IMG/VR virus record: IMGVR_UViG_3300046318_000318 | DNA length: 64,000 bases | From: a virus | Taxonomy: Duplodnaviria > Caudoviricetes | Reading direction: 5' to 3' (one strand) | Part shown: piece by piece, positions 2,050-34,425 of the stretch | How positions within the stretch are numbered: position 1 is the stretch's first letter | Layout of the letters: each line of letters opens with the position of its first letter | Notes under the pieces: generated by a model | The model's database searches: none | Seen by the model: only the letters and a program-made list of their open reading frames with translations | Told to the model about the DNA's origin: nothing | Position numbers and translations under genes: made by a program

Positions 2050-2673
2050 TCACTCACCAAAGATATCGGTAGGGTCACGACCCTCAGCCAAGATCTGTTG
2101 GATCTTATCCCATGTCAACAATATATCGTGACGTTCTTCTGTTGAAAGATCTTGATGACCTTCAAATAGTTCATCACAATACTGTTTAGCCACCCACTCA
2201 TACTTACCATCCACTTCAATGTCCTGGACCACACCATCCATCACCCTGCGGTAATAGTAGTGCTGATCATTACTTTGCTTAGGATCGATATCGATATAAG
2301 TGTCGCTGTAGCCATTGACGAGTTGTCTATGGTACATGTTTCGAAGGTCCGGCTGTGCCATGATGTAGTTTTGCATCATGGGTGTAGCGCTTCTCATACC
2401 TTCGATGTCATCTATCTGGATAATGACGTTAGGTTGATATAACCCACCGGCATGTCTGATAGCAGCTTTAGCTATCCTGATAGCTGTGTTATCATGGATT
2501 CTTGCATACAACTCTTTAGCACCTTGCATAAATCTTTGACCAGTTTCAGTCAGCGCATTACTGAACGACTGCATTTGGTTTTGGAAATACTGCAAAGTGC
2601 TTGGAGATTGATTTGGGAATGCAAGGTAATCAAAAGCCAAAGGTGAAGCTTCGATCACATTGATTTGATACAT
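2050..2673 (-). CDS. hypothetical protein, translationally coupled to RNAP exon 3
   Basis: ATG at 2673 overlaps the exon-3 stop (TAATG); preferred to the TTG at 2688. Confidence 0.8.
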   Translation of the reverse strand: MYQINVIEASPLAFDYLAFPNQSPSTLQYFQNQMQSFSNALTETGQRFMQGAKELYARIHDNTAIRIAKAAIRHAGGLYQPNVIIQIDDIEGMRSATPMMQNYIMAQPDLRNMYHRQLVNGYSDTYIDIDPKQSNDQHYYYRRVMDGVVQDIEVDGKYEWVAKQYCDELFEGHQDLSTEERHDILLTWDKIQQILAEGRDPTDIFGE

Positions 2674-2840
2674 TAACTCTCCAACCAAGATGAGATTGTT
2701 GCAATATTAGGCTTTGGGATACTTACGTTACCTGAAACCTGGAACGGCTTAGTCATCTGAAATATGTTAAACTCTGGTGAGAGAGGATACCACATATTAG
2801 ACATCTTTTCGTCAAGTGAGATAGAGACATTGAGAGCGTC
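2673..2840 (-). CDS. nvRNAP beta-prime N-terminal subunit, exon 3 (DALNVSISLDEK...SWLES*)
   Basis: 55 codons plus stop beginning with the last Asp of NADFDGD, preceded by intron terminal G; first 8 nt form P10 with intron 2. Confidence 0.88.
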   Translation of the reverse strand, partial: DALNVSISLDEKMSNMWYPLSPEFNIFQMTKPFQVSGNVSIPKPNIATISSWLES

Positions 2841-3185
2841 CATAACTACCTCACTCTAGCTTTAACTAAGTTCGCTAAACTTATTGATCTTGCTTAAGGA
2901 TCCTGATACTTTCATATCAGATTAGACTATATCTTCATCTTTCGATGCTCTTCGTTTCCACTCGCTTGAGTGTACTCCCATGTGGGATAGTCGTTGACCA
3001 CACTCCATGTAAGTATATATGTCTATACTTAGTTAGGAGCTTCGGTGCGGATTGCCCAATCCTTGTATCTTTTACCATACCCAGATAGTTACTCTGGCCA
3101 CTGCATATATTTCTATCGCAGTTTGGTGCACAAGGCTCTAAGGAGTTTCCCGCAATTAGAAGAGTTTAAACGACGGCAACACTCT
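2841..3185 (-). ncRNA. group I intron 2 (ORF-less, 345 nt) in the RNAP gene
   Basis: P AATTGCGGGAAA, Q AATCCGCA, R GTCAACGACTA, S AAGATATAGTC; P1 GACGGU/GCCGUC with U.G at the splice site; P10 AGAGUGUU/GACGCUCU; ends in G. Confidence 0.92.
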
Positions 3186-3206
3186 ACCGTCAAAATCAGC
3201 ATTTGG
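3186..3206 (-). CDS. nvRNAP beta-prime subunit, 21-nt micro-exon 2 (PNADFDG)
   Basis: CCA AAT GCT GAT TTT GAC GGT between two intron cores; restores HILTVRAPNADFDGD, same spacing as bacterial HPLVCAAYNADFDGD. Confidence 0.9.
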
Positions 3207-5197
3207 CTTATTGTCCAGTAAAGTCGCTCAGCTTCACAGCTTACCCTCTTTACCCGGTGCGCTTACACACCCACCTGTACTTTCATACAGGAACAGATCA
3301 TATCTTCATCCTTATTAAAGGATGCTCTCCGCTTCTTCCCTGCTTAGGGCTTTACTCGGTCGCAACTCCGATGATCGTTGAACTTTACGCATGGTTGATA
3401 AGAATCAACTTTAGCGTCTTAGCTGCTGATTACCCAATTCTTATATTTTTCAAACTATCACGCTCATCGTTTCCGATCACGTTGTAGTATATAAGACTCT
3501 AAAGGACTTCCCAGCAATTCAAAGAGATAACTTAGTCAATTACTCAACTAAGTGCCTTATCTCATCATTATTAAAATACAATGTCAATCGCCACACACCG
3601 CCTATCAATGCTTTTCTTCTAGCTATTGTAGGGATATATTGTCTAGCATACCCAAATTGCTGACTAATATCTATAGGACTTGTTATAATCCTAGTTTCGC
3701 CAGTTTCAACGTTTTCGATAAAATATCCGTTACCCCTAAAAGATCTTTTATCGAGACATAATTGTTTAAAGTACCTCAGCTCCTTATCGGTAAGATCTTT
3801 AAACTGTCCGTTGAAACTAAATTGCCAACCTTTAATCGGAATGTTCTTTAATCTTTTATTTTTAATAGATAGTTGAACACCCCATGAAACACCAGTTATT
3901 TTCTCACAAGCTGCCAGCGATTCAAATTTACGTTCTTTGCGTGTGAATATATTTCTAGCAGTAACTGGTATTTTTATTTGTAAATCTTCTAAGGATGGTT
4001 TTTCCTGAGGCCATGGTCTTGCATCTAATTTTCGTTTGAAACATAATCCGTCTGAATAGATTTTAATATCGGAAGATCTAAGTCTGACGGACACGGTTAG
4101 TTCAGAATATCCAAGTTTCAGAGAGCAATCCCTAGCACTTTTATATTCAGTCACCTCATCCGTGATTATGTTTTTAACAAGTATTGCTGAACCATACCTG
4201 AATTGATCGTACTCATTTTCTAAATTTTCATAATTTTTCCATTCTTTTAATTCAGATAGCCATTGAAACTGCATGTAATTTTCCCAAAGTTTACAACCGG
4301 GTTTTGTTTTTAACCGATGGTAAAGTAAATCATTACTCAAGCCTAATGCAATTGCGCATTGCGTCGGGTTATCATAAATAGTGATTTCATTGGTTTTAAC
4401 ATTTCTAGTTATGACGTCTATGGTATACTTTTTCTCATTTTCAAGAATTCTATTTACTTTTTCATCAGATCTATCACAATTCGAATAAATGACATTTCCT
4501 CTAGGTGTCACCCATTCTAAATTATCTAAGGTGTCAAAGCCAGGTATCTCATTTTTATGATTTACGTACAGCGATTCAACGTTTCTAGGATAATCTAGCC
4601 ATGCTAAGCACATAGCTCTGTGTCTGAAAAATTTGTAAGATGTATTCTCATTAAGGGAAACATCAGGAATACCTGAATAGGAATGGTAACCATCTCTATC
4701 ACAAAAAGCTTTTTTATCCACACCAGTTATCAAATTTCTAACTTTTCCTTCCTTTGTTATACCATATCTTGTAAAACCAGGAATATAAGCATGATCTTTG
4801 TGTACTGGATGTGATAAACCAACTGGAAATTTCCAAATCAAGTTGCTAGGATGAGAGTTATTAAAATCACCGTCCTCGAACATCAAGTGTAATAAATGCA
4901 CTTGACTTTCATGAACGTGAACGGGCTTAAAAGCCGAAGCTATGATAAACTCTATTGGATATAGACCAGGACCTCTTATCCAATCTAAGAAAATCAAAGT
5001 GCTTCCTGTTTCAGTTGAGATACACTCAATCTGAATGTTCTCTCGCGATATGACATCACCTTCTGAGTTAACAGAATAACGACCGTCAGACCAGGGTAGC
5101 GAAAGATAGTTTTGGGTTTGTAAATATTTACTAAGCATATATCCTTTCTATATAGAAAGGTATGCTAAACGGCGATTGACAATAATGATAAGAATTA
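3207..5197 (-). mobile_element. group I intron 1 (1991 nt) carrying an HNH homing endonuclease
   Basis: After the ORF: P AATTGCTGGGAA, Q AATCAGCAG, R GTTCAACGATCA, S AAGATATGATC (P7 GAUCA/UGAUC); exon ends in U (GCT); intron ends in G. Confidence 0.9.
3540..5138 (-). CDS. intron-encoded HNH homing endonuclease with C-terminal DNA-binding repeats
   Basis: VNHKNEIPGFDTLDNLEWVT HNH motif, degenerate first copy DGDFNNSHPSNLIW, repeats such as YKSARDCSLKLG and FESLAACEKITG. Confidence 0.88.
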   Translation of the reverse strand: MLSKYLQTQNYLSLPWSDGRYSVNSEGDVISRENIQIECISTETGSTLIFLDWIRGPGLYPIEFIIASAFKPVHVHESQVHLLHLMFEDGDFNNSHPSNLIWKFPVGLSHPVHKDHAYIPGFTRYGITKEGKVRNLITGVDKKAFCDRDGYHSYSGIPDVSLNENTSYKFFRHRAMCLAWLDYPRNVESLYVNHKNEIPGFDTLDNLEWVTPRGNVIYSNCDRSDEKVNRILENEKKYTIDVITRNVKTNEITIYDNPTQCAIALGLSNDLLYHRLKTKPGCKLWENYMQFQWLSELKEWKNYENLENEYDQFRYGSAILVKNIITDEVTEYKSARDCSLKLGYSELTVSVRLRSSDIKIYSDGLCFKRKLDARPWPQEKPSLEDLQIKIPVTARNIFTRKERKFESLAACEKITGVSWGVQLSIKNKRLKNIPIKGWQFSFNGQFKDLTDKELRYFKQLCLDKRSFRGNGYFIENVETGETRIITSPIDISQQFGYARQYIPTIARRKALIGGVWRLTLYFNNDEIRHLVE

Positions 5198-6439
5198 AGC
5201 GCGCACTGTTAAAATGTGCATTCCAATAGTGAGGTCATTTGGGTTCTTTTTGAACTTAGTAATCTTCACTCGTTGAGCCGACCCCTGCAAAAGGCTCGGA
5301 TTTCTTTGGAGACATACATACAAACCTTTATCAGGCGCTTCGTCTATCAGCTCCTGCATAAACCTTTCTAACAAGGGGTGGTGTTTGTTAGTATGTTTGT
5401 ATAGGAAACCAATAGAGTCATTCAGACCCATGCCGTAACGCCGCAGCTTATTCAACATGTGGATACGGTAAGCTGTGGTGGCCATACACCAAGGAGCTTC
5501 TATTTCATCATACTCTTTACCCGCTGTAATAGAGATGATAACTGCTCGGAATGAGAAGTTGGTTCTGGCTCCGAACATGTGTTTCCTGAAGTGACCGTGC
5601 TTATGAGCCATCAACAACAGGGTGTCGTTGTAGAAATCACAAAGCATGATCAAGGACTTAACTGTTCGGTTTTGCTTGGTCTTACTTGTCTGATCGTAAA
5701 AGTCTCTGTCAATAGACACCATCGTGTTGACAGCATTCACAGCCTTCATAATGGAAGGATCTGTGTATGTGCCTAGCGGTTGTGTATCAAAGATCAGGAC
5801 TATCTTGTTCGGCAAAGGCAGATACTCACTGAAAATTATCTTACGATAGTCTTTTAGCAAGGATTGAAGATAGTCTATCCTCTCACTCTTAAGCTCGAAC
5901 TTCTGAGTCTTAGGTGCAAACTCAGTCATGGAGAAGAGAGTATCCATGATGTAATCGAAATTAGTCACAAAGTAATTGTAACCGCGCTCGATATTGCACG
6001 TCATCAGTTTGGTCAGCACTTTGTCAGGTGTTTTAGCTGCTGTCGTATAGCTTGTGTTACAAAGCCATTCGATCACAGAGAACCCTGATTTGGTAAACCT
6101 CTTGATGAGCATCATGAAAACCACAGGAGAAATAAGCTTCTCTACCCCTACTGGTTGTTTGAGCCAGATGACTGGTTCGATATCTGACACAACTGAAGCT
6201 TTAACTTCAGTGTGACAGACTGGACAGATAGTACTCTTAGAATATTCACCTTTGGTATGTCCACATTGACAACTGGGAATCAGACTGATCTGATCACTAG
6301 AGAGATGTGTGGTAAGTTTCTCTTTGACAGCCTCACGTTCTTCAAGCGTAGAACACGCCATGTGGTTGATGAGGGTGGGGGTATGACGTAATGTATAAAA
6401 CATCTCGTCGTAGTTAACCAGTTCTTGGATAACAGGCAT
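5198..6439 (-). CDS. non-virion RNA polymerase beta-prime N-terminal subunit (phiKZ gp55-like), exon 1; spliced product 476 aa
   Basis: Zn finger CQCG...CPVC, FGARTNFSFRAVI, LQRNPSL, RVKITKFK; lies next to chimallin as in phiKZ. Confidence 0.9.
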
Positions 6440-6488
6440 GAGTTTCCTTTATGGTTGGTTGATGATACATTCAGACAGCGGTCACATA

Positions 6489-6497
6489 AAGTATATG
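6489..6497 (-). promoter_or_regulatory. candidate phage promoter core CATATACTT
   Basis: Same core upstream of chimallin (8563-8571) and in the longer repeats at 37136 and 47117; TATATACTT variant at 10965. Confidence 0.45.
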
Positions 6498-6523
6498 GTA
6501 TTAGTAAAATTAACAAACAGGAC

Positions 6524-6583: not shown

Positions 6584-8452
6584 TCAGTAGCGGTAACCAC
6601 CCATGTTGATGTAGTTCTGCATATGCTGAGGAGCCATGCCGAAACCCATGAACGATTGAGTAGGTGCCAGCAGACCAGCGTTGGCGAAACTTGCAACACC
6701 GCGTTGGTTGTTGAAGTCTGCACCAGACATTGGGCTGTTGATACGCACCATCAGGTTGCAAGCCTGAATACCCTTACGCAGAGCGTCCAGGAACGTAGCG
6801 CTGAAGGTCACTCGTTGAGCATAGCCTGTAAACACAGCGGACTCATTGGACATGCTGGAGATCATACGCTTGCGATCGGAGAGACGCTCTGCCAACGAGA
6901 TGTTGGTGTTCAGGTACGTTTCGGTGAACTGACGCAATGCATGCACATTGTTGGCACCAAGGATGTTGGCAGCTGCCAAGTAGTCGATGTCACGGATGTC
7001 ACGCTGAGCACCGTTGCGATCGGTGTAGTAACCCAGATGGACACGGTTACCCACATCCACGAACATCTGTGCGTTGTTCGGGAAATAGCGACCGAAGTTG
7101 CCAGCAGTCAGTTCCTGAGCAGCTTTGTACATGATGTCGTAAGCACCACCACCGCTTGCAGCAGCTGCACTGTACAGACCAGTATACCATGCCTGAGGAC
7201 CAGCTTCTGGGCAGTCAACAGCAACCATCAGACCAGGCTGAACCAGAGTGTTCAAGAACTGACCCAAGTTCTCAGTCGTAAAACTGGAAGACTTGGTGTC
7301 GAGGATGTTGCTGATACCAGTGGGTTGATTGTCAAAGTTGCCTTCGATGTTCAACGCACCTGCATCACGCAGATCCAAATCCTTAGTCATCTGGGGTCGG
7401 AAGATCTGGTAGTAGTTGTTGTTCAACGCCAGAGCATCCATGTTCGCCACTGCCAACAGCATGTTAGCTGGAGTGTATGCGTGAGCACTGGACAGAGTGG
7501 TGATCACAGCACGAGCTGCAAACTTCTGTGGCAAACGCTGTTGTGCAGGCATGTAGGGGTTGACCATGGGTTCACGAGGAGCCCAGAGCATTTCTACAAA
7601 GCCGCCAACTTCACTGATGCGAGTCTCACGACCGCCGCTGTTCAGACTGCGGTTCTGATTTTGGTTCTGATTGTTCTGAGCTGCAAAGCTCAGTTGGAAG
7701 TCAGAACGAATCAAGTTACCGACATCGTCAGCCACAGGTGTCGAACCAAAGGTCATGTTGATGACCAATTGTTGACCCGTAGGGATCTGCGACAGGTTCA
7801 GATCCTGGAACGTAGGAACCAGTTGAGACAACTCAGTACCGTTAGCCAAGCCAGCGTTCAGTGCCAGCTTATACACAGCAGCTTTGTCCTTCGTATTGAA
7901 AGTAGCTGGTACGACAGTGGCGTCGGTGAACCGCAGTTCGTGCTGAGGAAACGCACGACCAACAGCCGCCTTGGCTTTTGCAATCAAGATGTCGTCGAGA
8001 GCATCGCCCGCTACCCGATACAACTCGATTTGCTTTTGGTGGTGGTACTGCACCACAGGAGTGGGTTTGTCACCAGTTGCTTCGAGGATCAGCACATGGA
8101 ATGCTACCTTGTTAGGTACATCCTTCAGACGCATCGCCACGACCAGGCAAGAGAATGCCAGAGCCGTTTCGTTCTGGTTGTCCAGATCCAGAATGCTGAT
8201 CAGACTGTCAGAACTTGCGTTCTTGTAGATCTCAATAAGTGCGGTCTTGAGGTCGTTGTAAGCCTCAGACCCAATTGAGCGACCGATAGGGGCACCGAAG
8301 ATGTTACCGCCGGAACCGAAGTTCCAAGAAGATTTCACAGGTGCTTGTTGGGTAGCAGTAGCTGCTTGACCAGGAGAACCGGCTTGGGTGAAAGCGGTTG
8401 CTTCAGCAGAGGTTGCAGAAGCGGAAGAGTTGTTACCAGTATTGAGAGCCAT
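6584..8452 (-). CDS. chmA: chimallin, major phage nuclear shell protein (phiKZ gp54-like)
   Basis: 622 aa, low-complexity N-terminus then FGAPIGRSIGSE; host-like optimised codons; syntenic with the nvRNAP subunit. Confidence 0.85.
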   Translation of the reverse strand: MALNTGNNSSASATSAEATAFTQAGSPGQAATATQQAPVKSSWNFGSGGNIFGAPIGRSIGSEAYNDLKTALIEIYKNASSDSLISILDLDNQNETALAFSCLVVAMRLKDVPNKVAFHVLILEATGDKPTPVVQYHHQKQIELYRVAGDALDDILIAKAKAAVGRAFPQHELRFTDATVVPATFNTKDKAAVYKLALNAGLANGTELSQLVPTFQDLNLSQIPTGQQLVINMTFGSTPVADDVGNLIRSDFQLSFAAQNNQNQNQNRSLNSGGRETRISEVGGFVEMLWAPREPMVNPYMPAQQRLPQKFAARAVITTLSSAHAYTPANMLLAVANMDALALNNNYYQIFRPQMTKDLDLRDAGALNIEGNFDNQPTGISNILDTKSSSFTTENLGQFLNTLVQPGLMVAVDCPEAGPQAWYTGLYSAAAASGGGAYDIMYKAAQELTAGNFGRYFPNNAQMFVDVGNRVHLGYYTDRNGAQRDIRDIDYLAAANILGANNVHALRQFTETYLNTNISLAERLSDRKRMISSMSNESAVFTGYAQRVTFSATFLDALRKGIQACNLMVRINSPMSGADFNNQRGVASFANAGLLAPTQSFMGFGMAPQHMQNYINMGGYRY

Positions 8453-24906: not shown

Positions 24907-24986
24907 TATTCACATCACATGTTTTCAATTTATCGTAAATAAAAATAACGCAAAAAAGATAAGCAGGGATTTACCCCTGCTTATCT

Positions 24987-25265: not shown

Positions 25266-25560
25266 CCATGTGCCTGAGCTTTACGTCACAGATGTTTTCG
25301 ATCTGCTCGTCCATCATCTTATCGATTTTGGATTTGATGAAGTCTTGCATTTCAGGTTTTTCCAGCTCTTTACTGATGATTTCTTCGATCATTGAGCGAC
25401 CAATGCCTTTATCTTTGACGAGTTTGCCATTTATATAGGCATCTCTTTCATAGAAAAAAGCGTAGAAGGCGCTGTTGATAGTTTGATCTATCTGAAGCTT
25501 GAGTCTTTTTTCGATGGCTGGTTTATCGATCAACTGATCGATGTTGAATTTGATTTCCAT
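25210..25560 (-). CDS. hypothetical protein
   Basis: 116 aa, leader AGAAAGAATGTACC-ATG. Confidence 0.7.
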   Translation of the reverse strand: MEIKFNIDQLIDKPAIEKRLKLQIDQTINSAFYAFFYERDAYINGKLVKDKGIGRSMIEEIISKELEKPEMQDFIKSKIDKMMDEQIENICDVKLRHMGGKMAFTTDHQIPKAENV

Positions 25561-25593
25561 GGTACATTCTTTCTTGAGACAGGATTGATTAAA

Positions 25594-25797
25594 TCAAGCC
25601 AAAGCAGATTCTTCCAACTCCAGCATGTTGACAGGCACATGTGCCTTATCTCTGGACTGTTCATATTGAATATGAACACGAGCGGATCCGACAGGCGCAT
25701 CTTCCACTACACGGATACGGAACTTCATTTTCAACCGTGATGTGAAAATACCCTTAGTACCTTTTTTGATCAAGGTCTTGCTGACTGGTTCAGTCAT
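25594..25797 (-). CDS. hypothetical protein
   Basis: 67 aa, coupled. Confidence 0.6.
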   Translation of the reverse strand: MTEPVSKTLIKKGTKGIFTSRLKMKFRIRVVEDAPVGSARVHIQYEQSRDKAHVPVNMLELEESALA

Positions 25798-26074
25798 TTC
25801 TTTCTTTCTTTACAGGTTCTTCTACAAACAGTATATAGATGACTGCGTAGATAACTAATAACAAATTAAACAAAATGATCGTGGACACACCTGTCCAGAA
25901 GATCACAGCAGCCAAAGGCTGGTCTGGTGTATACCAGTGTGTGAACACAACACCAAAAGTCAGAATAAACACCACAAGTGCAATCAGCTTAATGTTAACT
26001 GCTTTCTGATAGTGTTTATGGAAGACGTTATTTGGGTTATCTCTATAGCTTGAGCTTTCAAGATACTTGTTCAT
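25790..26074 (-). CDS. two-TM membrane protein
   Basis: Two hydrophobic helices. Confidence 0.65.
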   Translation of the reverse strand: MNKYLESSSYRDNPNNVFHKHYQKAVNIKLIALVVFILTFGVVFTHWYTPDQPLAAVIFWTGVSTIILFNLLLVIYAVIYILFVEEPVKKERND

Positions 26075-26577
26075 GATCTTATATAAGTTTTCATGTGTTT
26101 GTCAGCTATGTGTATAGTATCTAGTTGAATCCGTCTGGTGACATCATCTTCCATCACACACATAGCCTCGTGCATGTCTTTAACCTGATTGACTTCAGAC
26201 TCAGTGAATCTGTACCAATCAGGATTAGTTTCATGTTCAGAAGCTTTTACCACCAGCATGTTAAAGACAGCTTCTAGCTCATCTACAGTTTCTTGCACAT
26301 AAACCACTTTAGCTATCTCTACCGCATGCTTGGTTCTAAAGGCTGCGTTATACCAATCAGTAGGTGTGCCTGTATTGGTTTCAAGAGCTTTGATGGTTAA
26401 TTCAAAAACTCTTCTGATCTTATCCTTCAGTTCTTTAGGAACAGCAAAAACCACTGGGGTGTGGGTTTTGTATTTCTTTTTGACTTGAGGGCGTTGTTTG
26501 AGTTTAAGTTCTATTACCACGGCTAGGGATGAAGTTATCCAGATAGGTGTTGATGTAATAGGCTGCCTCAGCTGCAT
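26071..26577 (-). CDS. hypothetical protein
   Basis: 168 aa. Confidence 0.65.
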   Translation of the reverse strand: MQLRQPITSTPIWITSSLAVVIELKLKQRPQVKKKYKTHTPVVFAVPKELKDKIRRVFELTIKALETNTGTPTDWYNAAFRTKHAVEIAKVVYVQETVDELEAVFNMLVVKASEHETNPDWYRFTESEVNQVKDMHEAMCVMEDDVTRRIQLDTIHIADKHMKTYIRS

Positions 26578-26737
26578 CTTTACATCTCACGATGGAAGTA
26601 GACAGCCTGTACTTGAGAAATATCGTACCTGACTCAAGTATGGAAATACCTATAGGGCAGTTAACACCGTCCAGATTTGTTTCTTTGACAAACTTAGAAA
26701 GTCTGTTAACAGCTTTATCCAGTAAACCATCAGTCAT
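26504..26737 (-). CDS. hypothetical protein
   Basis: 77 aa, coupled to upstream stop. Confidence 0.5.
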   Translation of the reverse strand: MTDGLLDKAVNRLSKFVKETNLDGVNCPIGISILESGTIFLKYRLSTSIVRCKDAAEAAYYINTYLDNFIPSRGNRT

Positions 26738-27255
26738 TTGACTTCCTTGAAACTAGCGATGAAATTCTTCATGCTCCCAGCAGGTGTGGTGTTTCCAGTC
26801 TGGACTTTAAACCCAACACGAAACTCTGACTCAAGACCTTTGCCAGAATCTACACGTTCAAGACAAAACATGTATAGGCCATGTTCATCAGCCACAGCGT
26901 CCAGAGCCATGGCTTGATCATGACAACTAACTGTCATGAAATATTCTTGAGGTGCTTGCCTTGCCAAAGCCAGACATAGGTTGAGTTGATTCTCACGCAT
27001 CTTGTTGACGTGTTCGTGAAATTCTTTCTTCAGGGTGCGCATCTCAGCTTTCAAAGCTTTGTTTTCTTCTTTGATAGCGTTGAGTTGTTTGTTCTCTTTC
27101 AGAACATCCTGAAGATCCAGGATCAGCTTAGCAATATTAGAAAAATCAAATTTTGAGGTTTGATCTTCCATAGCTACTGTAACGGCATTTTGAACTGCTG
27201 ATTCATTAACCTGTTTCTTGGTAGCTGACTTCACAACTTTACTTTCATTCAACAT
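26734..27255 (-). CDS. coiled-coil hypothetical protein
   Basis: 173 aa behind the conserved promoter-leader. Confidence 0.75.
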   Translation of the reverse strand: MLNESKVVKSATKKQVNESAVQNAVTVAMEDQTSKFDFSNIAKLILDLQDVLKENKQLNAIKEENKALKAEMRTLKKEFHEHVNKMRENQLNLCLALARQAPQEYFMTVSCHDQAMALDAVADEHGLYMFCLERVDSGKGLESEFRVGFKVQTGNTTPAGSMKNFIASFKEVK

Positions 27256-27300
27256 GATACATTCTTTCTTTAATGAGACAGGATTGTCAAGTAAAGTCTA
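27253..27300 (-). promoter_or_regulatory. conserved promoter-leader element
   Basis: ACTTTACTTGACAATCCTGTCTCATTAAAGAAAGAATGTATC-ATG, nearly identical at 29202 and 59836. Confidence 0.65.
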
Positions 27301-27395
27301 TATAACCGTAATTATTTACGAGGGTTTAATCAAATAGTAAACATCGTGAATAAAAAAATAAATATAGAACAGCCCTTGTGAGGCTGCTCTATATC

Positions 27396-27629
27396 TTATC
27401 TGTCTAATTTCAAATCGATCAGCTTAGTCAGCTTATGGATAGTGTTATATCTGTCCATCTCATCATCGGTTATAAACACATCGAAATGTTGTTCTAACTG
27501 CATGATGATCTCTACTCTATCCAGACTGGTTAATCCTACGTCACTATTTAGAACGGTATCTATTGTGACGTGTTGATTGGTAAACTCAGTCACGATCTGT
27601 TTTATTTCAGATTCTGTTGTTGTCCTCAT
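27396..27629 (-). CDS. acyl carrier protein-like
   Basis: ~77 aa, acidic; VGLTSLDRVEIIMQLEQHFDVFITDDE matches the ACP phosphopantetheine-site pattern (TSL for DSL). Confidence 0.8.
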   Translation of the reverse strand: MRTTTESEIKQIVTEFTNQHVTIDTVLNSDVGLTSLDRVEIIMQLEQHFDVFITDDEMDRYNTIHKLTKLIDLKLDR

Positions 27630-27665
27630 GATACATCCTACGTTGATACATAGGATATTCAATCA

Positions 27666-28181
27666 TCACTTCTTACCACCGGTGATAAGCCTTGGGGACC
27701 AACCCTTCTTAATCACAGTCTCTTCTGAAACTTTAAATTCTTCAGGTTCTTTTTCTTCAATGGCATGTTCATTAACAGTGGTGTGTTCGGTAAGCTTATC
27801 CTTACCTGACTTCTCAGCTATTACTATCTTTGTAAGCTGGATGAAGAATGATGTAAAAGGATAGGGGATAACCGCATCTACATCTACATCAATAATAGCA
27901 TCTATTTCGTCCAGAGAAATCATGATGTTTTCAGGCTTGCCGTTGAACCTGGCCTGAAAACTCAGATAATGTTCATAAACACCAAAATTGTGCACAGACT
28001 CAGGTGATAGATTAAGAGTGATAACCCCTTCTTGACTTTTATGCTGCTCCAGGAAACCTGCATGGGTCTTAGGGCGATACCAGATATGTACACGATGACC
28101 TTGCTCAGTCAACAAAGTGTAGCTGGATGCAAAGGCATCTGTTACAAGTTTTTTAACGTCAAGTTGAATTTGAACATTCAT
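27666..28181 (-). CDS. SspB-like ClpXP adaptor
   Basis: ITLNLSPESVHNF...LSFQARFNGKPENIMISLDEI, acidic tail. Confidence 0.75.
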   Translation of the reverse strand: MNVQIQLDVKKLVTDAFASSYTLLTEQGHRVHIWYRPKTHAGFLEQHKSQEGVITLNLSPESVHNFGVYEHYLSFQARFNGKPENIMISLDEIDAIIDVDVDAVIPYPFTSFFIQLTKIVIAEKSGKDKLTEHTTVNEHAIEEKEPEEFKVSEETVIKKGWSPRLITGGKK

Positions 28182-28374
28182 GATTTTGTTCCTTAGTTGG
28201 AAGTTGGTGATTGTGAGGGTTGAAGATGATGCCGTCGGTACGTTTAAGCCAGGCTACAGCAACATAGTTGACTTGAGGATAACCCCTTTGTGTGATGCCT
28301 GTAATAGTACCAGGTCCTACAGGACTATCTTCTATGGTATCGCCTATCTCAAGATATTCAGGGTTCATAGTCAC
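28159..28374 (-). CDS. hypothetical protein
   Basis: 71 aa, coupled. Confidence 0.6.
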   Translation of the reverse strand: MTMNPEYLEIGDTIEDSPVGPGTITGITQRGYPQVNYVAVAWLKRTDGIIFNPHNHQLPTKEQNHECSNST

Positions 28375-29204
28375 ACTACTTTCATGACACGTTGAAAAAT
28401 GTAAAACTTTCTATCTGGAAACTTAATGCCCAAACGTTGAGCCTCAGTAAAAGCTTTCTTATATGTCAGATGAGTTGAGGGTTTTTCAGAAAATTGATAA
28501 CCGTTAAAATCTTCTGTTTTTTCTTTCAGCTTACTGGATATGACAAATATTCGTTTTCTTTTAAGACTGTTGGTATGGTCAAGAACCATATCTACTGTTT
28601 TACAGAAATTTAAATAGTGCTCATTAAGCTTGGTATTTTTGTAGTGTGTTCCAGTTTCGTTAAGCTGGATACCGTTTTCATCTAATAGATGCTGAAGGTT
28701 ATTTTCAGCGTAGATGCTAAACATCTGTTGTTTAGTACCGGGCATGATACTTTCCTTTTTTGACGAAGTTTGATTTTTACATTCTTTTTCTGGCAGATGT
28801 ACACCATTTATGTACCAGTATTTTTCACCGCTGCGATTTTCGATAGCAGGTCCATCAATACGGTGAAGCATGCCGTGTCGATACCATAATTTATTACCAT
28901 CTATGCGCTCAACAGCTGATCCGTCTTCCCGATGACGCTCACCGTTCAGCCACCATTCACTATGACCATTCCGGCGATCGATAGCAGGACCATCTATTCG
29001 ATGACGCTTCCCGTTCAGCCACCATTCTCTATCGCCGTTAGCGTACTCAACAGCAGGATCATCTAGACGATGTAGTATGTTGTCCAGATACCAAGCTTTA
29101 TACCCATCCAAACGCTCAACGGTTGGACCATCTTCACGATGAAGCTTATCGTCTTTATACCAAACTACACTTCCATTTTCTTTTATGACTTTTCCATTTA
29201 ACAT
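28371..29204 (-). CDS. protein with N-terminal HRxDGPA repeats fused to an unrelated C-terminus
   Basis: Tandem ~23-aa WY...LHRxDGPAVE repeats. Confidence 0.8.
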   Translation of the reverse strand: MLNGKVIKENGSVVWYKDDKLHREDGPTVERLDGYKAWYLDNILHRLDDPAVEYANGDREWWLNGKRHRIDGPAIDRRNGHSEWWLNGERHREDGSAVERIDGNKLWYRHGMLHRIDGPAIENRSGEKYWYINGVHLPEKECKNQTSSKKESIMPGTKQQMFSIYAENNLQHLLDENGIQLNETGTHYKNTKLNEHYLNFCKTVDMVLDHTNSLKRKRIFVISSKLKEKTEDFNGYQFSEKPSTHLTYKKAFTEAQRLGIKFPDRKFYIFQRVMKVV

Positions 29205-29250
29205 GATACATTCTTTCTTTAATGGGACAGAATTGTCAGATAAAGTTTAA
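29202..29250 (-). promoter_or_regulatory. conserved promoter-leader element
   Basis: TTTAAACTTTATCTGACAATTCTGTCCCATTAAAGAAAGAATGTATC-ATG. Confidence 0.65.
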
Positions 29251-29323
29251 ATGATTATAAATAACTAGGCAGCCTATTTGCTCTGTTCATAAAAAAAACA
29301 GGACCCGAAGATCCTGTTTTATA

Positions 29324-30313
29324 TTAAGGTAAGAAATCACACTTCATCAACCTCAGAAACTTTTCAGTATCTGAGATAGGAAATGAGAACCCTGAAGCAT
29401 TTTTATGCCCACCGCCGCCGTTGTGTTTAGCTATAGCTGATACATCCACATCTCCAGCAGCGTTACTACGAAGAGAAACTATCACCAGATCTCTACCAGG
29501 GCTGACGATGAAGAAAGCACAAAACGCATACTCATCTTTAACAAGATCAGCCACGTTTGATACATACTTCATATCACAGTTCATAAGGGCTGCTTTACCC
29601 AACTTGGTTTCCACAGGAGTAATAAGTCCTTTCAGACGCTCACATTCTGCTTCGTAGAAGTCAAGCTCCAATGCTGCTTTGGTCCAGACGGCTTTAAATT
29701 CACTATCTGACATTTCAAAGATCTTGTCCCAAGCTTCAAATGTCATCTCAGCATTCAAAACTTTGTTCCAGATCTTTGTACCGTCCAATTTGAAAAGCCA
29801 CAGATCACGATCTTCTACAGCCAACGCAGCATGGCGCAGTCTAGCAGGAACATCGATATCTTCAGAATCAATAGTTTCCAAAGCCAGACCAGCGCCTGAA
29901 CGATTCTGGATAAGTTTAGTGAAGAACTTAACATCCTTCTCACAACAAATCAGGTCAGGTCTCTGCTCAAGACAAAGATGATTGACTGTCTTTAGTTTCT
30001 CTACGTCAGAAGCACCGTAGATATCAATCGCTGTCTTGTGGTGATCAAGAAACGCCAAACACTTGAGGTTTGGGGATTCGTTGACAATCTTAGCCAGATC
30101 ATCTTTGCTGTAAGAATAGTCGATAATCCAGAACTCTTCTGCGTCTGTAGACAAAGCCTCGTCACCATACTGCACTGGTGTGTACAGTACATCTAGACCA
30201 TCCAACTCAGCTTCCTGGCTTTTAAACCAATGTCTGAGTAGATAAGCAGACATAAAACCATCGGTACAGTTCTTGTGGTACCGAACTTCAACTTTCATTT
30301 TTTCAGACATCAT
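29324..30313 (-). CDS. DHH/DHHA1-family phosphoesterase
   Basis: YHKNCTDG, IIDYS, FLDHH, EDRDLW, SLRS, GGGGHKNASG. Confidence 0.88.
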   Translation of the reverse strand: MMSEKMKVEVRYHKNCTDGFMSAYLLRHWFKSQEAELDGLDVLYTPVQYGDEALSTDAEEFWIIDYSYSKDDLAKIVNESPNLKCLAFLDHHKTAIDIYGASDVEKLKTVNHLCLEQRPDLICCEKDVKFFTKLIQNRSGAGLALETIDSEDIDVPARLRHAALAVEDRDLWLFKLDGTKIWNKVLNAEMTFEAWDKIFEMSDSEFKAVWTKAALELDFYEAECERLKGLITPVETKLGKAALMNCDMKYVSNVADLVKDEYAFCAFFIVSPGRDLVIVSLRSNAAGDVDVSAIAKHNGGGGHKNASGFSFPISDTEKFLRLMKCDFLP

Positions 30314-30462
30314 GATACTTTCTTAAGTAAAACAAAAACAATTGAAATGACACAACATGCGCAAAAGAACCCGAGACTCAGGTATTGCATAATGGAGAGT
30401 TCCCTACTCCACTTATCCAAATCCTCTTGTTCTTTCTTTGAAAGATTGCGGTAATCGTTCAT
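30310..30462 (-). CDS. 50-aa single-TM protein (below the ORF-track cut-off)
   Basis: MNDYRNLSKKEQ...FFCACCVISIVFVLLKKVS*; ATGA overlaps at both ends. Confidence 0.65.
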   Translation of the reverse strand: MNDYRNLSKKEQEDLDKWSRELSIMQYLSLGFFCACCVISIVFVLLKKVS

Positions 30463-30872
30463 TGGCTGAAGTCCGTTCTTGATTTGATCATGTTCTTTGC
30501 TGTATCATCATCTGCATTATACAGACGGTCGCAAAAGCACTTATCTATTTCATTCACGACTTTTTCCAATTTCACCCACTGATAAAAAGCTTGACCGTAG
30601 CGCAAAGTTTTACTATCGTGTCTGAAATCCTGAATGACAGAATTGCTAAACGTTAGGCGATCTGTATCACAAACAAAATCATCTTTGAGTTCAGAGAAAC
30701 GTTCGTGAGACAAACAGCGGAAATGTACATAGCGATTACCATTTCCGCTATCGTACCAAGCGGTAGTGCGAAGATGAATCAGATTTTCCACATCGTTACA
30801 AACAGGACACAACACTTCTTCATTCACAGTCGCCATTTGACCTGTGAAAATTTCTCTTACAAATTCTTTCAT
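30459..30872 (-). CDS. Zn-ribbon-containing hypothetical protein
   Basis: CPVC; leader AAGGAAGTATC-ATG. Confidence 0.7.
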   Translation of the reverse strand: MKEFVREIFTGQMATVNEEVLCPVCNDVENLIHLRTTAWYDSGNGNRYVHFRCLSHERFSELKDDFVCDTDRLTFSNSVIQDFRHDSKTLRYGQAFYQWVKLEKVVNEIDKCFCDRLYNADDDTAKNMIKSRTDFSQ

Positions 30873-30887
30873 GATACTTCCTTTTGC

Positions 30888-31241
30888 TTAAACAGATTTA
30901 TAACGAAGCAGATCCCAAATCTCTTCATCGGTGAGTATCTCATACTCTACCGGTGTGTTGATCTGAGCTTTGATCTTAGCATTTGATGTCCAGCAATTCT
31001 CTCGCTTGTGTTCATGGACACCAGGTCGTTGAAACTCAACAGCTGATTTGAGTTTCTTTTCATCGTAAATGATGGCTATCACACAGGACTTGCCGTGCGA
31101 TATGTGTTTACCCGGACCTTTCTTCGACTTGCCAGAAATTCGATCAGCCCAACAAGCTGCCTCGTTGATATCCCTGGTTACAGTACCTGGCACAAAACCA
31201 GGTTTCAAGAAAGATCGCAAGGTACCTTTATAGAATACCAT
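30888..31241 (-). CDS. hypothetical protein (start uncertain)
   Basis: MVFYKGT...; longer start begins in a terminator hairpin. Confidence 0.55.
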   Translation of the reverse strand: MVFYKGTLRSFLKPGFVPGTVTRDINEAACWADRISGKSKKGPGKHISHGKSCVIAIIYDEKKLKSAVEFQRPGVHEHKRENCWTSNAKIKAQINTPVEYEILTDEEIWDLLRYKSV

Positions 31242-31382
31242 TTCATAATAACCCAATAAGTTATTGGCTTTTGGGTTTGGTTTACTTGATGAAATACCAA
31301 GTCTCAAATAAAGTAGATGTTGCCAAAAAAATTTACATAGCCTATACACCCGAGCCATATAGGCCGGGTGTATAGCTGTGTT

Positions 31383-31550
31383 TCATTTAACGTTTATATA
31401 GACCAATAGGAATAAAACCATGACTATTCCTACAGCCAGTACAAATGACTGACCATCAAGAACTATGTCTTTATATTGATCTTCTTCAGTTTCATAAGCA
31501 CTCAAGGTACTTATACCAGAAGCTTCATCTTTTTCATTGTTAAAAAACAT
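31383..31550 (-). CDS. 55-aa protein with C-terminal TM
   Basis: MFFNNEKDEASG...FVLAVGIVMVLFLLVYINVK*. Confidence 0.6.
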   Translation of the reverse strand: MFFNNEKDEASGISTLSAYETEEDQYKDIVLDGQSFVLAVGIVMVLFLLVYINVK

Positions 31551-31552
31551 GA

Positions 31553-31747
31553 TTATATTTCTGTTGATTTAACAATGATAGATAAGCCATCTGGATGATA
31601 GCTGGAAGTGCTCTTACAAGCCATGTTGATAGATTCTTCTATAGATTCAAACAGAGGATGATTCTGTCTAAATCTAAGCTGTACGTGTTTCTCTTTACCT
31701 TCGTCATTGACGATAGTTGTATTAAAGACTATTTCGTTACCGATCAT
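31553..31747 (-). CDS. hypothetical protein
   Basis: 64 aa, coupled. Confidence 0.6.
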   Translation of the reverse strand: MIGNEIVFNTTIVNDEGKEKHVQLRFRQNHPLFESIEESINMACKSTSSYHPDGLSIIVKSTEI

Positions 31748-31968
31748 GATTTATCAAACCTCTTTTTTATCTCTCTAAAAACTACCATCGATAACACCAG
31801 AGCTGAAAATATATTCAGTAAAGGAGCTAAAGACACCACTATCAAAATACCACCTGTGGTAGCACTGAAGTCTACACCTCTCTCATCATAAAAAAGATAA
31901 GCGCAGATAGCTGTTAGAACAAAACCAAAGATTACAAAAGTCAGATGTGTAGTTATAAGAAATTCCAT
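31744..31968 (-). CDS. small two-TM membrane protein
   Basis: Start moved to MEFLITT; two hydrophobic helices. Confidence 0.6.
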   Translation of the reverse strand: MEFLITTHLTFVIFGFVLTAICAYLFYDERGVDFSATTGGILIVVSLAPLLNIFSALVLSMVVFREIKKRFDKS

Positions 31969-32101
31969 TTTAATACCGTTGTTGTAGTTACAGTCAAATA
32001 ATTTCGGGTAAAAAAATAAGGGCGGGACAGTTTGTATCTGCTTGTGACAACCGAGTCTGGGTAGACTGATCACTTGCATCAACAAACTGTCCCTAATTAA
32101 G

Positions 32102-32201
32102 AACAAAGCCAACATGAATCGAACATGTTAAGTAAATATAACCTTCTACGCAGAATAGCACTGCTCCAGTTAATTTACTTGCCTCTACCAGACGGCTTTG
32201 T
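32102..32201 (-). ncRNA. tRNA-like element without a normal anticodon arm
   Basis: 9-bp AACAAAGCC/GGCTTTGTT stem, TGGTAGAG D-loop-like segment, T arm AACATG-TTCGATT-CATGTT, 12-bp anticodon-position stem with 26-nt loop, no CCA. Confidence 0.6.
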
Positions 32202-33366
32202 TTCTCTATTTATTACAAGATAGAGAAGGATGTGTCAGTCACCGCATCCAAGATATTTATAACACCGACTCGTGTTACCGGTTTGTCCAAACCTGGTGAA
32301 AGGATAAGCTACATCTGTTTAACTCAATCGCCACATACCCAGTAGTTCAGGTAAGGGTTAAGATGATTGTGCTATAATAAGCACAGAGCCTTAATACGAC
32401 AGTGTTTTAATTCATCAACATAACACTGAAGATACCCGAGTTCTCAATAGAGAATCTCGCTGTATTTTTGATGCCTAAGCACTCTAAAGCTATCTCTCCT
32501 AAAATAAGAGATAGCTTATAGGCTGCTCTCTGGGGTGATCAATCCCAAAGTTTACAACTTCCCAAAGATATCATTCATACAGTTCCCGACCAAGGGTAGT
32601 CTATATAAGAGATATCCATAGGGCGTACGATTTGGCGGTTGGTTAGACCACCTTCTACTCCTTAACAAAAAGTTAAAGGCAGGCTATTATCGTGAGCGCA
32701 CCTCTTTCTATTACACACTTGTGATGTGTTTCGTCCTTGTGTTTAAAGCCTTAGGACTCATCAGATAGATAAGGCTCAAATGAAGTTTATGTGGCCTCAT
32801 TCTTTTATAAAGGGGTTTTCCCATAGCAGACTAAATGACTTCTGTCTATCTAATCTGCTACAGGCAAACACCTGAGTGCTAACTTGTTATCATATCACAA
32901 AGGTAGATAACCACAACCTATTACAATAAAGACGTGTGAATCGCCTGCTTGCTTTGGCAAGAACAGCCCTCGAAGCTAGAGCCACATCAGGTCTGAACAA
33001 TCGTCAGAACACATGATCCCAGGGGATTTAAAAAGCATCAAACACAGTTCTGGGAAACTATGTGCTAGATCGACAGTTTATATTTTCCTTGTTTTATCAA
33101 CTAAGTGAAAATACCGATCACTTTATACTGCTCCATCGTGCGTGTATTTTGTTATCACGCTAACGTCCCGATAGTACGTTTACCTAAGTTACCAATGGTC
33201 AATACCTGCACCCTAGCCTTACGCCCGCAAGCGATCTATTAACTTAACTCCGTAATCCGCAATGATATACGCACATTAAGAAATGTTTACACACTAGATT
33301 TACTAAGCAGCGACTTGTTAGTTACCATTGATACGATCAAGTCTACTCCGGTTTACTTAGGTTAAA
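32202..33366 (-). ncRNA. long ORF-free structured region containing a hammerhead
   Basis: No ORF of 60 aa or more in ~1.15 kb; many hairpins. Confidence 0.55.
32707..32769 (-). ncRNA. type I hammerhead ribozyme, predicted cleavage after GUA (between 32712 and 32711)
   Basis: UCUAU-CUGAUGA-GUCC..GGAC-GAAA-CACA..UGUG-UA|AUAGA: all core nucleotides and three helices present. Confidence 0.88.
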
Positions 33367-33425
33367 TGGTACCAGGAACGGGACTCGAACCCGTAAGACC
33401 CTTGCGGAAGTATTAAGTTTTTAAA
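33367..33425 (-). pseudogene. 3' half of a broken tRNA-Leu
   Basis: TTTAAAA remnant loop, long variable arm with GCAA loop, ACGGG-TTCGAGT-CCCGT, TCCTGGT-A-CCA. Confidence 0.75.
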
Positions 33426-33434
33426 GTACATGGG

Positions 33435-33743
33435 TGGCCCGCTCCGGAATCGAACCGGAACGCCCCTTACGAAAGCGTCAGATTTTAAGTCTGATCTCTA
33501 CCACTGCAGTTTTCACTGCCACTTTAGTGTGTTTGTGGTCTGGACTATCCCTTCAACTACATCCTAAATGTTTAGCTGGGCGATTATAGTCTCTGCACGT
33601 CTTTCTATATTTCTATAGAAATTTCGCTCAGGATTGGCATCAGCAATTAACTGTTAAGCTTTCCCTGAATTTACGCCATTTTACTACATTATTTCTAATG
33701 TAGGACACATCAAATATATGTCTACCTATTTCATCAGCGGGCC
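33435..33743 (-). tRNA. tRNA-Leu(UAA) interrupted in the D arm at 25/26; exons 33718-33743 and 33435-33495; CCA not encoded
   Basis: GGCCCGC/GCGGGCC-A, GGTAGACAT|A, TCAGA-CTTAAAA-TCTGA, long variable arm, TCCGG-TTCGATT-CCGGA. Confidence 0.9.
33496..33717 (-). ncRNA. group I intron (IC3-like, 222 nt) in the tRNA-Leu D arm
   Basis: AAATTCAGGGAAA, AATCCTGAGC, GTGCAGAGACTA, GGATAGTCC; P1 GACAU/GUGUC, P10 AUCAGA/UUUGAU; ends in G. Confidence 0.92.
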
Positions 33744-33754
33744 ACCCATGTACT

Positions 33755-34255
33755 CTATTTCTTTTCTAATCTGTAGTATTCTTTCTTTATTTCAGTTCTT
33801 TCGATGATCACGCCGCCATTTTGAACTTTGGCGCCATAAGAACCTGAACATTTTTTACTACAAAAAGGACCTGCTCTATTAGAAACATAATTAGTTATCT
33901 GATTTTTACTAGGGGTAAATATTTCCTCACACCCAGCACACTTTACAGGATCCACCTTTACTCGTTTAGCGTCTTCACTTGCGTGAACAGGCAGTGTTTT
34001 AACAATAAGGTTATTTAGAGAATTATTGGTGAAATTTCTATCGTGATGGTCAACAGTCTCACCGTCTTTTAACTTTTGTTTTAATTCAATTTCTTTTAAA
34101 GCCTTGGGGTAAGAGATGGTTTTGGTCTTACCTTTAGTCCCCTTAGCAGCTTTTGAATTATTTAAAACAATATGCTGTCGACCATCACTTCTGTGATAAG
34201 GACCTAAGACGGATGTATATTCTGGATATAATCCAAGAAGTATTTGCTTATCCAT
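33755..34255 (-). CDS. free-standing HNH endonuclease with C-terminal Cys4 Zn finger
   Basis: ETVDHHDRNFTNNSLNNL; CAGC...FCSKKC. Confidence 0.85.
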   Translation of the reverse strand: MDKQILLGLYPEYTSVLGPYHRSDGRQHIVLNNSKAAKGTKGKTKTISYPKALKEIELKQKLKDGETVDHHDRNFTNNSLNNLIVKTLPVHASEDAKRVKVDPVKCAGCEEIFTPSKNQITNYVSNRAGPFCSKKCSGSYGAKVQNGGVIIERTEIKKEYYRLEKK

Positions 34256-34260
34256 GTTTT

Positions 34261-34286
34261 CCCTTTACCGATTTGGGCATCCTGGT
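34261..34286 (-). pseudogene. 5' half (positions 1-25) of the broken tRNA-Leu
   Basis: ACCAGGA-TG-CCC-AAATCGGTAAA-GGG; ACCAGGA pairs perfectly with TCCTGGT of the 3' half. Confidence 0.78.
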
Positions 34287-34350
34287 AATATCTATATCTC
34301 ACGTTGCAGTCAGTTAGAATATTTATCACTAAATGATTCTAGAAAAGGAT

Positions 34351-34425
34351 TGGTGCCGGATGTCTGATTTGAACAGACGACCTATCGCTTACAAGGCGAG
34401 TGCTCTACCCCTGAGCTAATCCGGC
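34351..34425 (-). tRNA. tRNA-Thr(UGU), no intron
   Basis: GCCGGAT/ATCCGGC-A-CCA, loop CT-TGT-AA, TTCAAAT T loop. Confidence 0.93.

Follow-up and report, generated by a model that had tools for sequence, protein, structure and literature searches.

Group I introns are homing elements in the RNA polymerase (RNAP) genes of chimalliviruses, where they are used in interference competition (PMC11620839, PMC12908238). In one case, the endonuclease of the PhiPA3 gp210 intron gives its carrier an advantage against PhiKZ (Birkholz et al. 2024, PMC11620839; review PMC12908238). Jug phages carry an average of 18.5 group I introns per genome (PMC12880540), and according to a 2014 review all phage introns then known were located in protein-coding genes, despite the many tRNA genes of phages (PMC3984707). 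Here we describe a 64,000-nt stretch of DNA (IMG/VR record IMGVR_UViG_3300046318_000318; this whole stretch is hereafter called the window) from an uncultured freshwater, chimallin-encoding (phiKZ-like) jumbo phage, the DNA of which is present in many freshwater metagenomes. Six ribozymes are predicted in it, all on the minus strand: two group I introns in the gene of the nonvirion RNAP (nvRNAP) subunit beta'-N, three in the genes of tRNA-Arg(UCU), tRNA(CAU) and tRNA-Leu(UAA), and one type I hammerhead (Table 1). We consider it likely that the five introns are genuine self-splicing homing introns, selfish elements that have accumulated at conserved sites in an intron-rich phage lineage and are spliced constitutively.

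The PhiPA3 gp210 intron resembles the window introns in belonging to a chimallin-bearing family, in residing in a subunit gene of a multisubunit RNAP, and in combining a group I ribozyme with an HNH endonuclease at a conserved site. By contrast, the PhiPA3 gene encodes a subunit of the virion RNAP and contains a single intron, whereas two introns bracket a 21-nt catalytic exon in the window, a related genome (G001, see below) has four, and the HNH nuclease is a predicted one here. With Staphylococcus phage Twort and the Jug phages, the window has in common many group I introns in essential conserved genes and many stand-alone HNH genes. It differs from them in lineage and habitat, in the tRNA genes among the intron hosts, and in its very short exons.

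Bacterial group I introns are known from the tRNA-Ile(CAU) gene of Azoarcus, from cyanobacterial and plastid tRNA-Leu(UAA) genes (between nucleotides 34 and 35, 34/35), from cyanobacterial tRNA-fMet, and from Agrobacterium tRNA-Arg(CCU). The tRNA introns of the window are similarly short and devoid of an open reading frame (ORF). The intron of tRNA(CAU) is positioned directly after the anticodon with its P1 formed on ..CAU, as in Azoarcus tRNA-Ile(CAU), and the intron of tRNA-Arg(UCU) is at 34/35, where the Leu intron of cyanobacteria is found. Unlike in the bacterial cases, the hosts are phages, the Arg(UCU) isoacceptor is new, and the site in tRNA-Leu(UAA) is 25/26. To our knowledge, there is no precedent for a tRNA intron at 25/26, and we found none in the literature searched. 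Similarly, we found no later literature report of group I introns in phage tRNA genes, which is not proof of their absence.

Collaborative homing, reportedly described in 2009 by Bonocora and Shub and, for cyanophage psbA, by Zeng and colleagues, is said to combine a free-standing endonuclease gene with an ORF-less intron. The tRNA-Leu locus of the window is similar in that a free-standing HNH gene lies beside an intron-bearing gene, and the ORF-less intron of the latter would disrupt the presumed target. Different from those cases, the window cassette brings along a whole replacement tRNA-Leu and splits the resident gene at the equivalent nucleotide, and the target of the HNH protein is a predicted one.

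The window phage possesses the genes by which chimalliviruses are recognized, namely a chimallin gene, which adjoins the nvRNAP beta'-N gene, a phiKZ-type split multisubunit RNAP, and a divergent family B DNA polymerase (PF20286, E 6e-211), and it is predicted from these genes to form a nucleus. In a megablast search of GenBank phages with three stretches of the window, no close relative was found. Comparisons were made with two relatives from IMG/VR, G002 (loci L005, L020 and L022; ~91-97% nucleotide identity, covering window positions 31728-47630) and G001 (loci L004, L018 and L019; about 66-77% nucleotide identity, covering most of the studied region). A metagenome scan anchored on a DprA-like gene yielded one further informative relative, L023.

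Group I introns in the RNA polymerase and tRNA genes

An earlier note on this DNA, made from the sequence alone, had listed five group I introns and one hammerhead, and this inventory is confirmed. All five introns match the Rfam group I model RF00028 (49.1-87.7 bits; E-values from 1e-9 to 1e-21), four of them above the curated cut-off of 50 bits, with the tRNA-Arg intron alone just under it. The 5' exons end with U in all five cases (GCU and GGU for RNAP introns 1 and 2, CUU for tRNA-Arg, and CAU for both tRNA(CAU) and tRNA-Leu), and every intron has a terminal G before the 3' exon and a P1 guide pairing. P10 pairing is clear in RNAP intron 2 and in the introns of tRNA-Arg and tRNA-Leu. The intron cores retain P3-P9 and the guanosine-binding P7, in which the tRNA-Arg intron has a compensated change. 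Removal of the introns in silico restores nvRNAP beta'-N, tRNA-Arg(UCU), tRNA(CAU) and tRNA-Leu(UAA). The tRNA junctions were set by P1/P10 pairing together with intron-less homologues; running ARAGORN over all U/G splice-site combinations was too permissive for this purpose.

The interrupted RNAP gene is phiKZ gp55-like, and we take it to encode nvRNAP beta'-N by its synteny with phiKZ gp54-gp55. Exon 1 terminates in ..ILTVRA (GCT), and an in-frame TAA follows directly within intron 1. The two introns are inserted at VRA/PNADFDG and NADFDG/D (slashes mark exon junctions), so that the micro-exon between them contains the first two catalytic Asp residues, two of the three in the catalytic triad. 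The joined protein of 476 amino acids (aa), ..VRA/PNADFDG/DALN.., can be aligned with uninterrupted homologues with no gap at either junction and is collinear with the proteins of phages FLC9, RP12 and Moabite; for the RNAP subunit, Burkholderia phage FLC9 gives the best protein match (41%). Ralstonia phage FLC4-3B was checked as a candidate carrier of an interrupted homologue and has none.

The earlier note had placed two introns in the active-site codons of nvRNAP. This is correct as to the sites, which bracket the PNADFDG exon, but intron 1 is not confined to a ribozyme core. Its full length is 1991 nt, guide and core (3600-3207) are located at its 3' end, and its P1 loop, which contains the HNH ORF, is closed by the long-range stem GUCAAUCGCC / GGCGAUUGAC. 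P1 of this intron is GCGCU/GGCAC, with one mismatch. At the same site, G001 (L004) has an ORF-less intron of 75% identity with a 10-nt loop and a clean P1, GUGCU/GGCAU. RNAP intron 2 has a 6-bp P1, GACGGU/GCCGUC, with a terminal U.G pair, and an 8-bp P10 of AGAGUGUU with the start of the 3' exon, GACGCUCU; it is 82% identical to the G001 intron at the same site. The nvRNAP beta'-N gene of G001 (L004 7144-8664) contains altogether four group I introns of 370, 342, 339 and 347 nt, at QRN/PS, VRA/PN, NAD/FDG and FDG/D. Between them lie exons of 101, 12 and 9 nt, a further intron dividing the letters of the window's 21-nt exon into 12 and 9.

For the tRNA genes, the three introns of the earlier note are upheld, with insertion sites at 34/35 in tRNA-Arg(UCU), 36/37 in tRNA(CAU) and 25/26 in tRNA-Leu(UAA). 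Its statement that three of the four intact tRNAs need splicing likewise holds for positions 2673-34425, where tRNA-Thr(UGU) is the uninterrupted one. The tRNA-Leu intron is assigned to the position between nucleotides 25 and 26 because its guide, UUUGAU-GUGUC, pairs with both exons, forming P1 with GACAU of the D stem 3' strand (GACAU/GUGUC) and P10 with AUCAGA, which comprises nucleotide 26 and part of the anticodon stem. This site is at the 3' end of the D stem and outside the anticodon loop, and ARAGORN identifies the spliced sequence as tRNA-Leu(taa). As a side observation, the acceptor stem of this tRNA-Leu is prolonged by an uninterrupted 17-bp helix (GTACATGGGTGGCCCGC with its complement).

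The tRNA-Arg intron lies between U34 and C35, with P1 CUU/GAG adjoining P10 CUAA/UUAG, and the spliced tRNA forms a clean 75-nt cloverleaf according to ARAGORN. A remnant of this gene in G001 (L018) is intron-less, with the contiguous junction CTT-CTAAG. Directly 3' of its anticodon, tRNA(CAU) contains the intron with the highest score, with P1 UCAU/GUGA, and an intron-less homologue in G001 (L018 4790-4866) has the same junction, CAT-AA. Since the next gene downstream encodes the catalytic domain of the lysidine synthetase TilS, the window tRNA(CAU) is probably a tRNA-Ile2; it combines the CAU anticodon and an A1-U72 pair, as in E. coli ileX, with the adjacent TilS N-domain. This minimal TilS and tRNA(CAU) would constitute a self-contained AUA-decoding pair. 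G001 retains a TilS homologue, and a search of viral contigs with the TilS protein found no relative.

Mobility of the introns and competing explanations

The tRNA-Leu intron is part of a larger insertion. The free-standing HNH gene lies 12 nt upstream of the intron-bearing tRNA-Leu, and together they make up a cassette of ~860 nt within a resident tRNA-Leu gene (33367-34286), of which the fragments 34286-34259 and 33400-33367 are left. In G002, an intact intron-less tRNA-Leu(UAA) (L005 7216-7304) matches the first fragment with its 5' 28 nt and the second with its 3' end. The break in the resident gene follows nucleotide 26, which corresponds to the position of the intron in the tRNA of the cassette. 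The same HNH and tRNA-Leu cassette is present in G001 inside a different resident tRNA-Leu. There, the tRNA-Leu intron (L018 3556-3892) has 12 extra letters following GACATA, which puts an ACGGA anticodon-stem strand upstream of the intron. Its apparent site is 31/32, with A instead of U at the splice site and no U.G pair available; it would seem that either the splice site of this copy has shifted or the copy does not splice. The tRNA-Thr(UGU) genes of both relatives are split by bare HNH (HNH_3) ORFs without a ribozyme, after the D loop in G002 (L005 6617-7172) and in the anticodon loop in G001 (L018 4100-4770), and they are probably dead, given that their 3' halves are altered or shortened. 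In a metatranscriptome contig (run X20), window position 34392 is joined to 33531: the tRNA-Thr 5' half, as far as the anticodon loop, is followed by 28 letters of other sequence and then by the 3' portion of an intron of the Leu type. The source of this contig may be a relative with a group I intron in tRNA-Thr.

The earlier note had proposed a comparison of intron occupancy across related phages, and occupancy differs among the window, G001 and G002 at both tRNA and RNAP genes. The tRNA-Leu intron is present in the window and G001 and missing from G002, the tRNA(CAU) and tRNA-Arg introns are present in the window and missing from G001, and the RNAP gene has two introns in the window and four in G001. 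Over ~115 kb each, G001 has 9 and G002 has 5 RF00028 matches. Orthologous RNAP introns are 75-82% identical, and those at different sites are 50-59% identical and have common 3' ends, which suggests that they are paralogues that spread within the gene; intron A of the G001 gene is apparently a chimera of the window's two intron families. Among the tRNA introns, those of tRNA-Arg and tRNA-Leu in the window are 59% identical against a background of 40-47%, and the tRNA-Leu intron of G001 is closer to the window's tRNA(CAU) intron (55%) than to its tRNA-Leu intron. These similarities indicate that introns moved between tRNA genes. Fragments and chimeras of tRNAs are common in the tRNA clusters of the window and its relatives.

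Unannotated DNA in the tRNA clusters of cultured jumbo phages, both of Klebsiella and of Escherichia, also matches the core of the window's tRNA(CAU) intron. In one tRNA cluster, Klebsiella phage Muenster (MT708547, 302826-303136; L031 866-1176) has an unannotated tRNA(CAU) with a group I intron at the same site after CAT (RF00028, 104 bits) and the GGUGA guide found in the window. The complete Muenster genome contains no chimallin match, and the tRNA(CAU) intron is thus not tied to a nucleus-forming lifestyle. Similar matches were seen in phages KP13-7, RCIP0023, phiKp_21, TH47 and Turkey5.

What the sequences show directly is how the ribozymes fold, the logic of the splice sites, the products restored, the endonuclease genes and the polymorphic occupancy; from these we infer the following course of events. 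The five introns would excise themselves from primary transcripts by two transesterifications initiated by guanosine, rebuilding the nvRNAP beta'-N reading frame and three tRNAs. The putative HNH homing endonucleases, encoded in RNAP intron 1 and beside tRNA-Leu, would cut intron-less alleles at highly conserved sites, and repair would copy the intron or the cassette into the cut allele. Carriers would be immune, their recognition site being interrupted by the intron. ORF-less copies would then have reached further sites, neighboring ones as well as new ones, both inside the RNAP gene and between tRNAs. Splicing would most likely be constitutive, a condition for the survival of the phage and not a timer, and the introns would be present because they are mobile.

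Several observations do not fit easily with this selfish, constitutively spliced state. Since the lineages of the window phage and G001 diverged (about 74% nucleotide identity), RNAP introns 1 and 2 have both stayed in place, and a useful element would look alike. No endonuclease gene is located near RNAP intron 2, the tRNA-Arg intron or the tRNA(CAU) intron, so that present mobility is not evident for these three. The tRNA-Arg intron scores 0.9 bit under the Rfam cut-off, and ARAGORN does not call the spliced tRNA(CAU), even at lowered thresholds. Assembled contigs of three metatranscriptome runs and one DNA run, placed on positions 14501-34500, contain no splice joints at the tRNA loci, and unspliced contig pieces span the tRNA-Leu 5' exon and intron. 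Given that contigs drop rare forms and that tRNAs are poorly captured, this result neither shows nor refutes splicing. Parts of 32400-34450 are contained in 17 freshwater metatranscriptome runs. For 2600-6500, run X20 contains 0.33 of the sequence words sampled, which is near the fraction that exon 1 by itself makes up. Finally, a selfish origin is compatible with later co-option. Nevertheless, it appears highly improbable to us that the introns colonizing the tRNA genes and the catalytic Asp triad were co-opted, in a phage that keeps transcription apart from translation, as a kinetic gate that would release polymerase and decoders only after the RNA has folded and spliced in the shell.

The earlier note had favored an RNA-maturation layer that controls when active nvRNAP and A/U-codon tRNAs appear. 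In the form considered here, the rate of splicing within the chimallin shell would time the appearance of active nvRNAP and of tRNAs reading AGA, AUA and UUA. The factual base of the note was correct, namely a chimallin-encoding phage with introns at essential sites and in tRNAs for heavily used codons. Every interrupted gene is needed for middle or late expression, and the four tRNAs read codons that are used heavily in the ORFs of the window phage (AGA, 41% of Arg; AUA, 35% of Ile; UUA and ACA are also heavily used). TilS needs an intact anticodon loop, and lysidine formation must therefore follow splicing; together with the conserved positions of RNAP introns 1 and 2, this would suit a regulatory role. 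Such a role is difficult to reconcile with the polymorphic occupancy of all three tRNA introns, the variable number of RNAP introns, the destruction of resident tRNA-Leu and tRNA-Thr genes by the same elements, and the occurrence of the tRNA(CAU) intron in a phage without a chimallin match, and no sequence feature is suggestive of a switch. Considering also the HNH genes and the intron families, a dedicated regulatory layer is unsupported by the data, and we regard it as very unlikely. Selfish introns at conserved homing sites, which the earlier note had mentioned as the simpler alternative, fit the comparative data.

The putative HNH nucleases could also serve as weapons between phages, cutting intron-less RNAP or tRNA genes when relatives co-infect and so giving the carrier an advantage. 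This has been shown for the endonuclease of an intron in the RNAP gene of a chimallivirus (PMC11620839, PMC12908238), HNH genes lie in RNAP intron 1 and beside tRNA-Leu, relatives co-occurring in freshwater metagenomes carry susceptible intron-less alleles, and HNH ORFs interrupt tRNA-Thr in G001 and in G002, at a different position in each. Against this, four of the five introns are without an ORF of their own. We judge such a role to be somewhat unlikely, and it is compatible with selfish introns, not exclusive of them. It is improbable, in our opinion, that some of the interrupted tRNA genes are dead, their introns no longer splicing and the clusters representing homing debris in a phage that would use host tRNAs. 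The common tRNA fragments and chimeras, the A8 and the G27.A43 mismatch of the spliced tRNA(CAU) that ARAGORN leaves uncalled, the score of the tRNA-Arg intron and the G001 tRNA-Leu intron without U at its predicted 5' splice site would all agree with decay. However, the intron cores are kept from P3 to P9, the P7 change of the tRNA-Arg intron is compensated, and the guides match both exons. The unusual A8 A9 D-arm is shared with the intron-less tRNA(CAU) of G001, indicating a trait of the lineage and not decay, and TilS is retained beside tRNA(CAU). Self-splicing selfish introns at conserved sites remain our preferred explanation.

The hammerhead ribozyme and adjoining RNAs

Type I hammerheads (RF00163) are frequent in phage and prophage DNA. 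The window hammerhead is like these in its core, its topology (stem I open, stems II and III capped) and its GUH cleavage triplet. Unlike them, it has a 15-17-nt loop on stem II and a 7-nt loop on stem III and is consistently followed by a structured RNA of ~240 nt. Its RF00163 score of 16.1 bits (E 1.9 in 1.35 kb) does not reach the cut-off of 34 bits, a loss attributable to the long loops and the short stem I. The core is complete (CUGAUGA, GAA, A15.1-U16.1, and A as H17) and intact in four lineages, the window, G002, G001 and L023, between which compensatory changes on both sides preserve the pairing in stems I, II and III (Table 1). A strict motif scan found a single copy in the window and likewise in every related locus, with 0.01 expected per shuffled 64-kb window. 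Full core, rarity by chance, and conservation with covariation make this hammerhead real despite its Rfam score, and we predict a separate, conserved self-cleaving element.

Directly after the predicted cut follows the ~240-nt RNA (32470-32706, minus strand; L019 7155-7393 in G001). Its loop blocks are invariant, its minimum free energy (MFE) z-score is -7.3 for the minus strand, and in 14 of its predicted pairs both partners differ between the window and G001; no Rfam family matched. Because a conserved and highly structured RNA lies directly downstream, the hammerhead most likely creates or trims the 5' end of this RNA. In L023, a more distant relative with a DprA-like protein of 53% identity, a tRNA-like gene with a 15-bp extended acceptor stem (3660-3760) is situated between the DprA-like gene and the conserved hammerhead.

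Two ORF-free stretches were noted besides. The one at 21090-21750, upstream of tRNA-Arg and tRNA(CAU), is the most abundant RNA of a 20-kb stretch in three independent freshwater metatranscriptomes (one contig of 595 nt has a depth of 129) and may be a large noncoding RNA; no homologues of 20950-22080 were found in G001 or G002. The other, at about 32848-33400 between the tRNA-Leu remnant and the hammerhead, is represented by abundant contigs in three runs (pieces of 244-581 nt) and is conserved in G002 and absent from G001. In neither stretch did we detect GOLLD, ROOL or any other Rfam family at permissive thresholds, or a blastn match to phages, and MFE z-scores do not set the two RNAs apart from a coding control. 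Elsewhere in the window, an ARAGORN call of a 93-nt tRNA-Met at 44628-44720 is probably a false positive: its D arm is poor, its stems contain mismatches, and Rfam gives no call there.

Table 1. Features of the window, with hammerhead stems of the window and its relatives
Feature	Positions	Strand	Evidence and details
nvRNAP beta'-N, exon 1	5198-6439	minus	phrog_2987, E 1e-115, profile positions 1-413
RNAP group I intron 1, 1991 nt	3207-5197	minus	RF00028, 68.7 bits at 3584-3274
HNH endonuclease ORF, 532 aa, in P1 loop of RNAP intron 1	5138-3540	minus	phrog_59, E 8.5e-15
nvRNAP beta'-N, micro-exon (exon 2), 21 nt	3186-3206	minus	Encodes PNADFDG; read from sequence
RNAP group I intron 2, 345 nt, no ORF	2841-3185	minus	RF00028, 83.7 bits at 3195-2903
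nvRNAP beta'-N, exon 3	2673-2840	minus	DALNVSISLD.. to stop; phrog_2987, profile positions 422-475
tRNA-Arg(UCU)	20636-20939	minus	Exons 20939-20906 and 20676-20636; 229-nt group I intron 20905-20677; RF00028, 49.1 bits, E 1e-9, at 20916-20697
tRNA(CAU)	20315-20626	minus	Exons 20626-20589 and 20354-20315; 234-nt group I intron 20588-20355; RF00028, 87.7 bits at 20615-20362
tRNA-Leu(UAA)	33435-33743	minus	Exons 33743-33718 and 33495-33435; 222-nt group I intron 33717-33496; RF00028, 59.7 bits at 33727-33519
Free-standing HNH endonuclease gene, 166 aa	33755-34255	minus	phrog_14913, E 8.6e-15; HNH_3 weak
Type I hammerhead ribozyme	32707-32769	minus	Predicted cut after A32712
Hammerhead stems, window and G002			I UCUAU/AUAGA; II GUCC/GGAC; III ACACA/UGUGU
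Hammerhead stems, G001	L019 from 7098		I UUCU/AGAA; II GUUC/GAAC; III ACACCGUC/GACGGUGU
Hammerhead stems, L023	from 3855		I UUCAU/AUGAA; II GUCC/GGAC; III ACAUUGC/GCAGUGU
TilS (lysidine synthetase), catalytic N-domain only, 212 aa	19633-20271	minus	TIGR02432, 103 bits (cut-off 93.6); PF01171
tRNA-Thr(UGU), uninterrupted	34351-34425	minus	RF00005, 68.9 bits; ARAGORN
Chimallin	6584-8452	minus	PF25677, E 1e-34

Implications for phage introns

Introns in essential phage genes, including the RNAP genes of nucleus-forming phages, and intron-rich jumbo phages were known already. New are tRNA genes as phage intron hosts, a tRNA intron outside the anticodon loop, a homing cassette with a replacement tRNA, and micro-exons that contain catalytic aspartates. 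The unannotated example in at least one cultured Klebsiella jumbo phage implies that standard annotation misses such tRNAs. An intron at 25/26, at the junction of the D stem and the anticodon stem, widens the accepted range of self-splicing tRNA intron sites, and the 21-, 12- and 9-nt exons with RNAP catalytic aspartates provide a stringent natural test of the minimal exon between two ribozymes. The series of occupied and empty alleles in co-occurring freshwater phages is well suited for the study of homing, interference competition and tRNA replacement.

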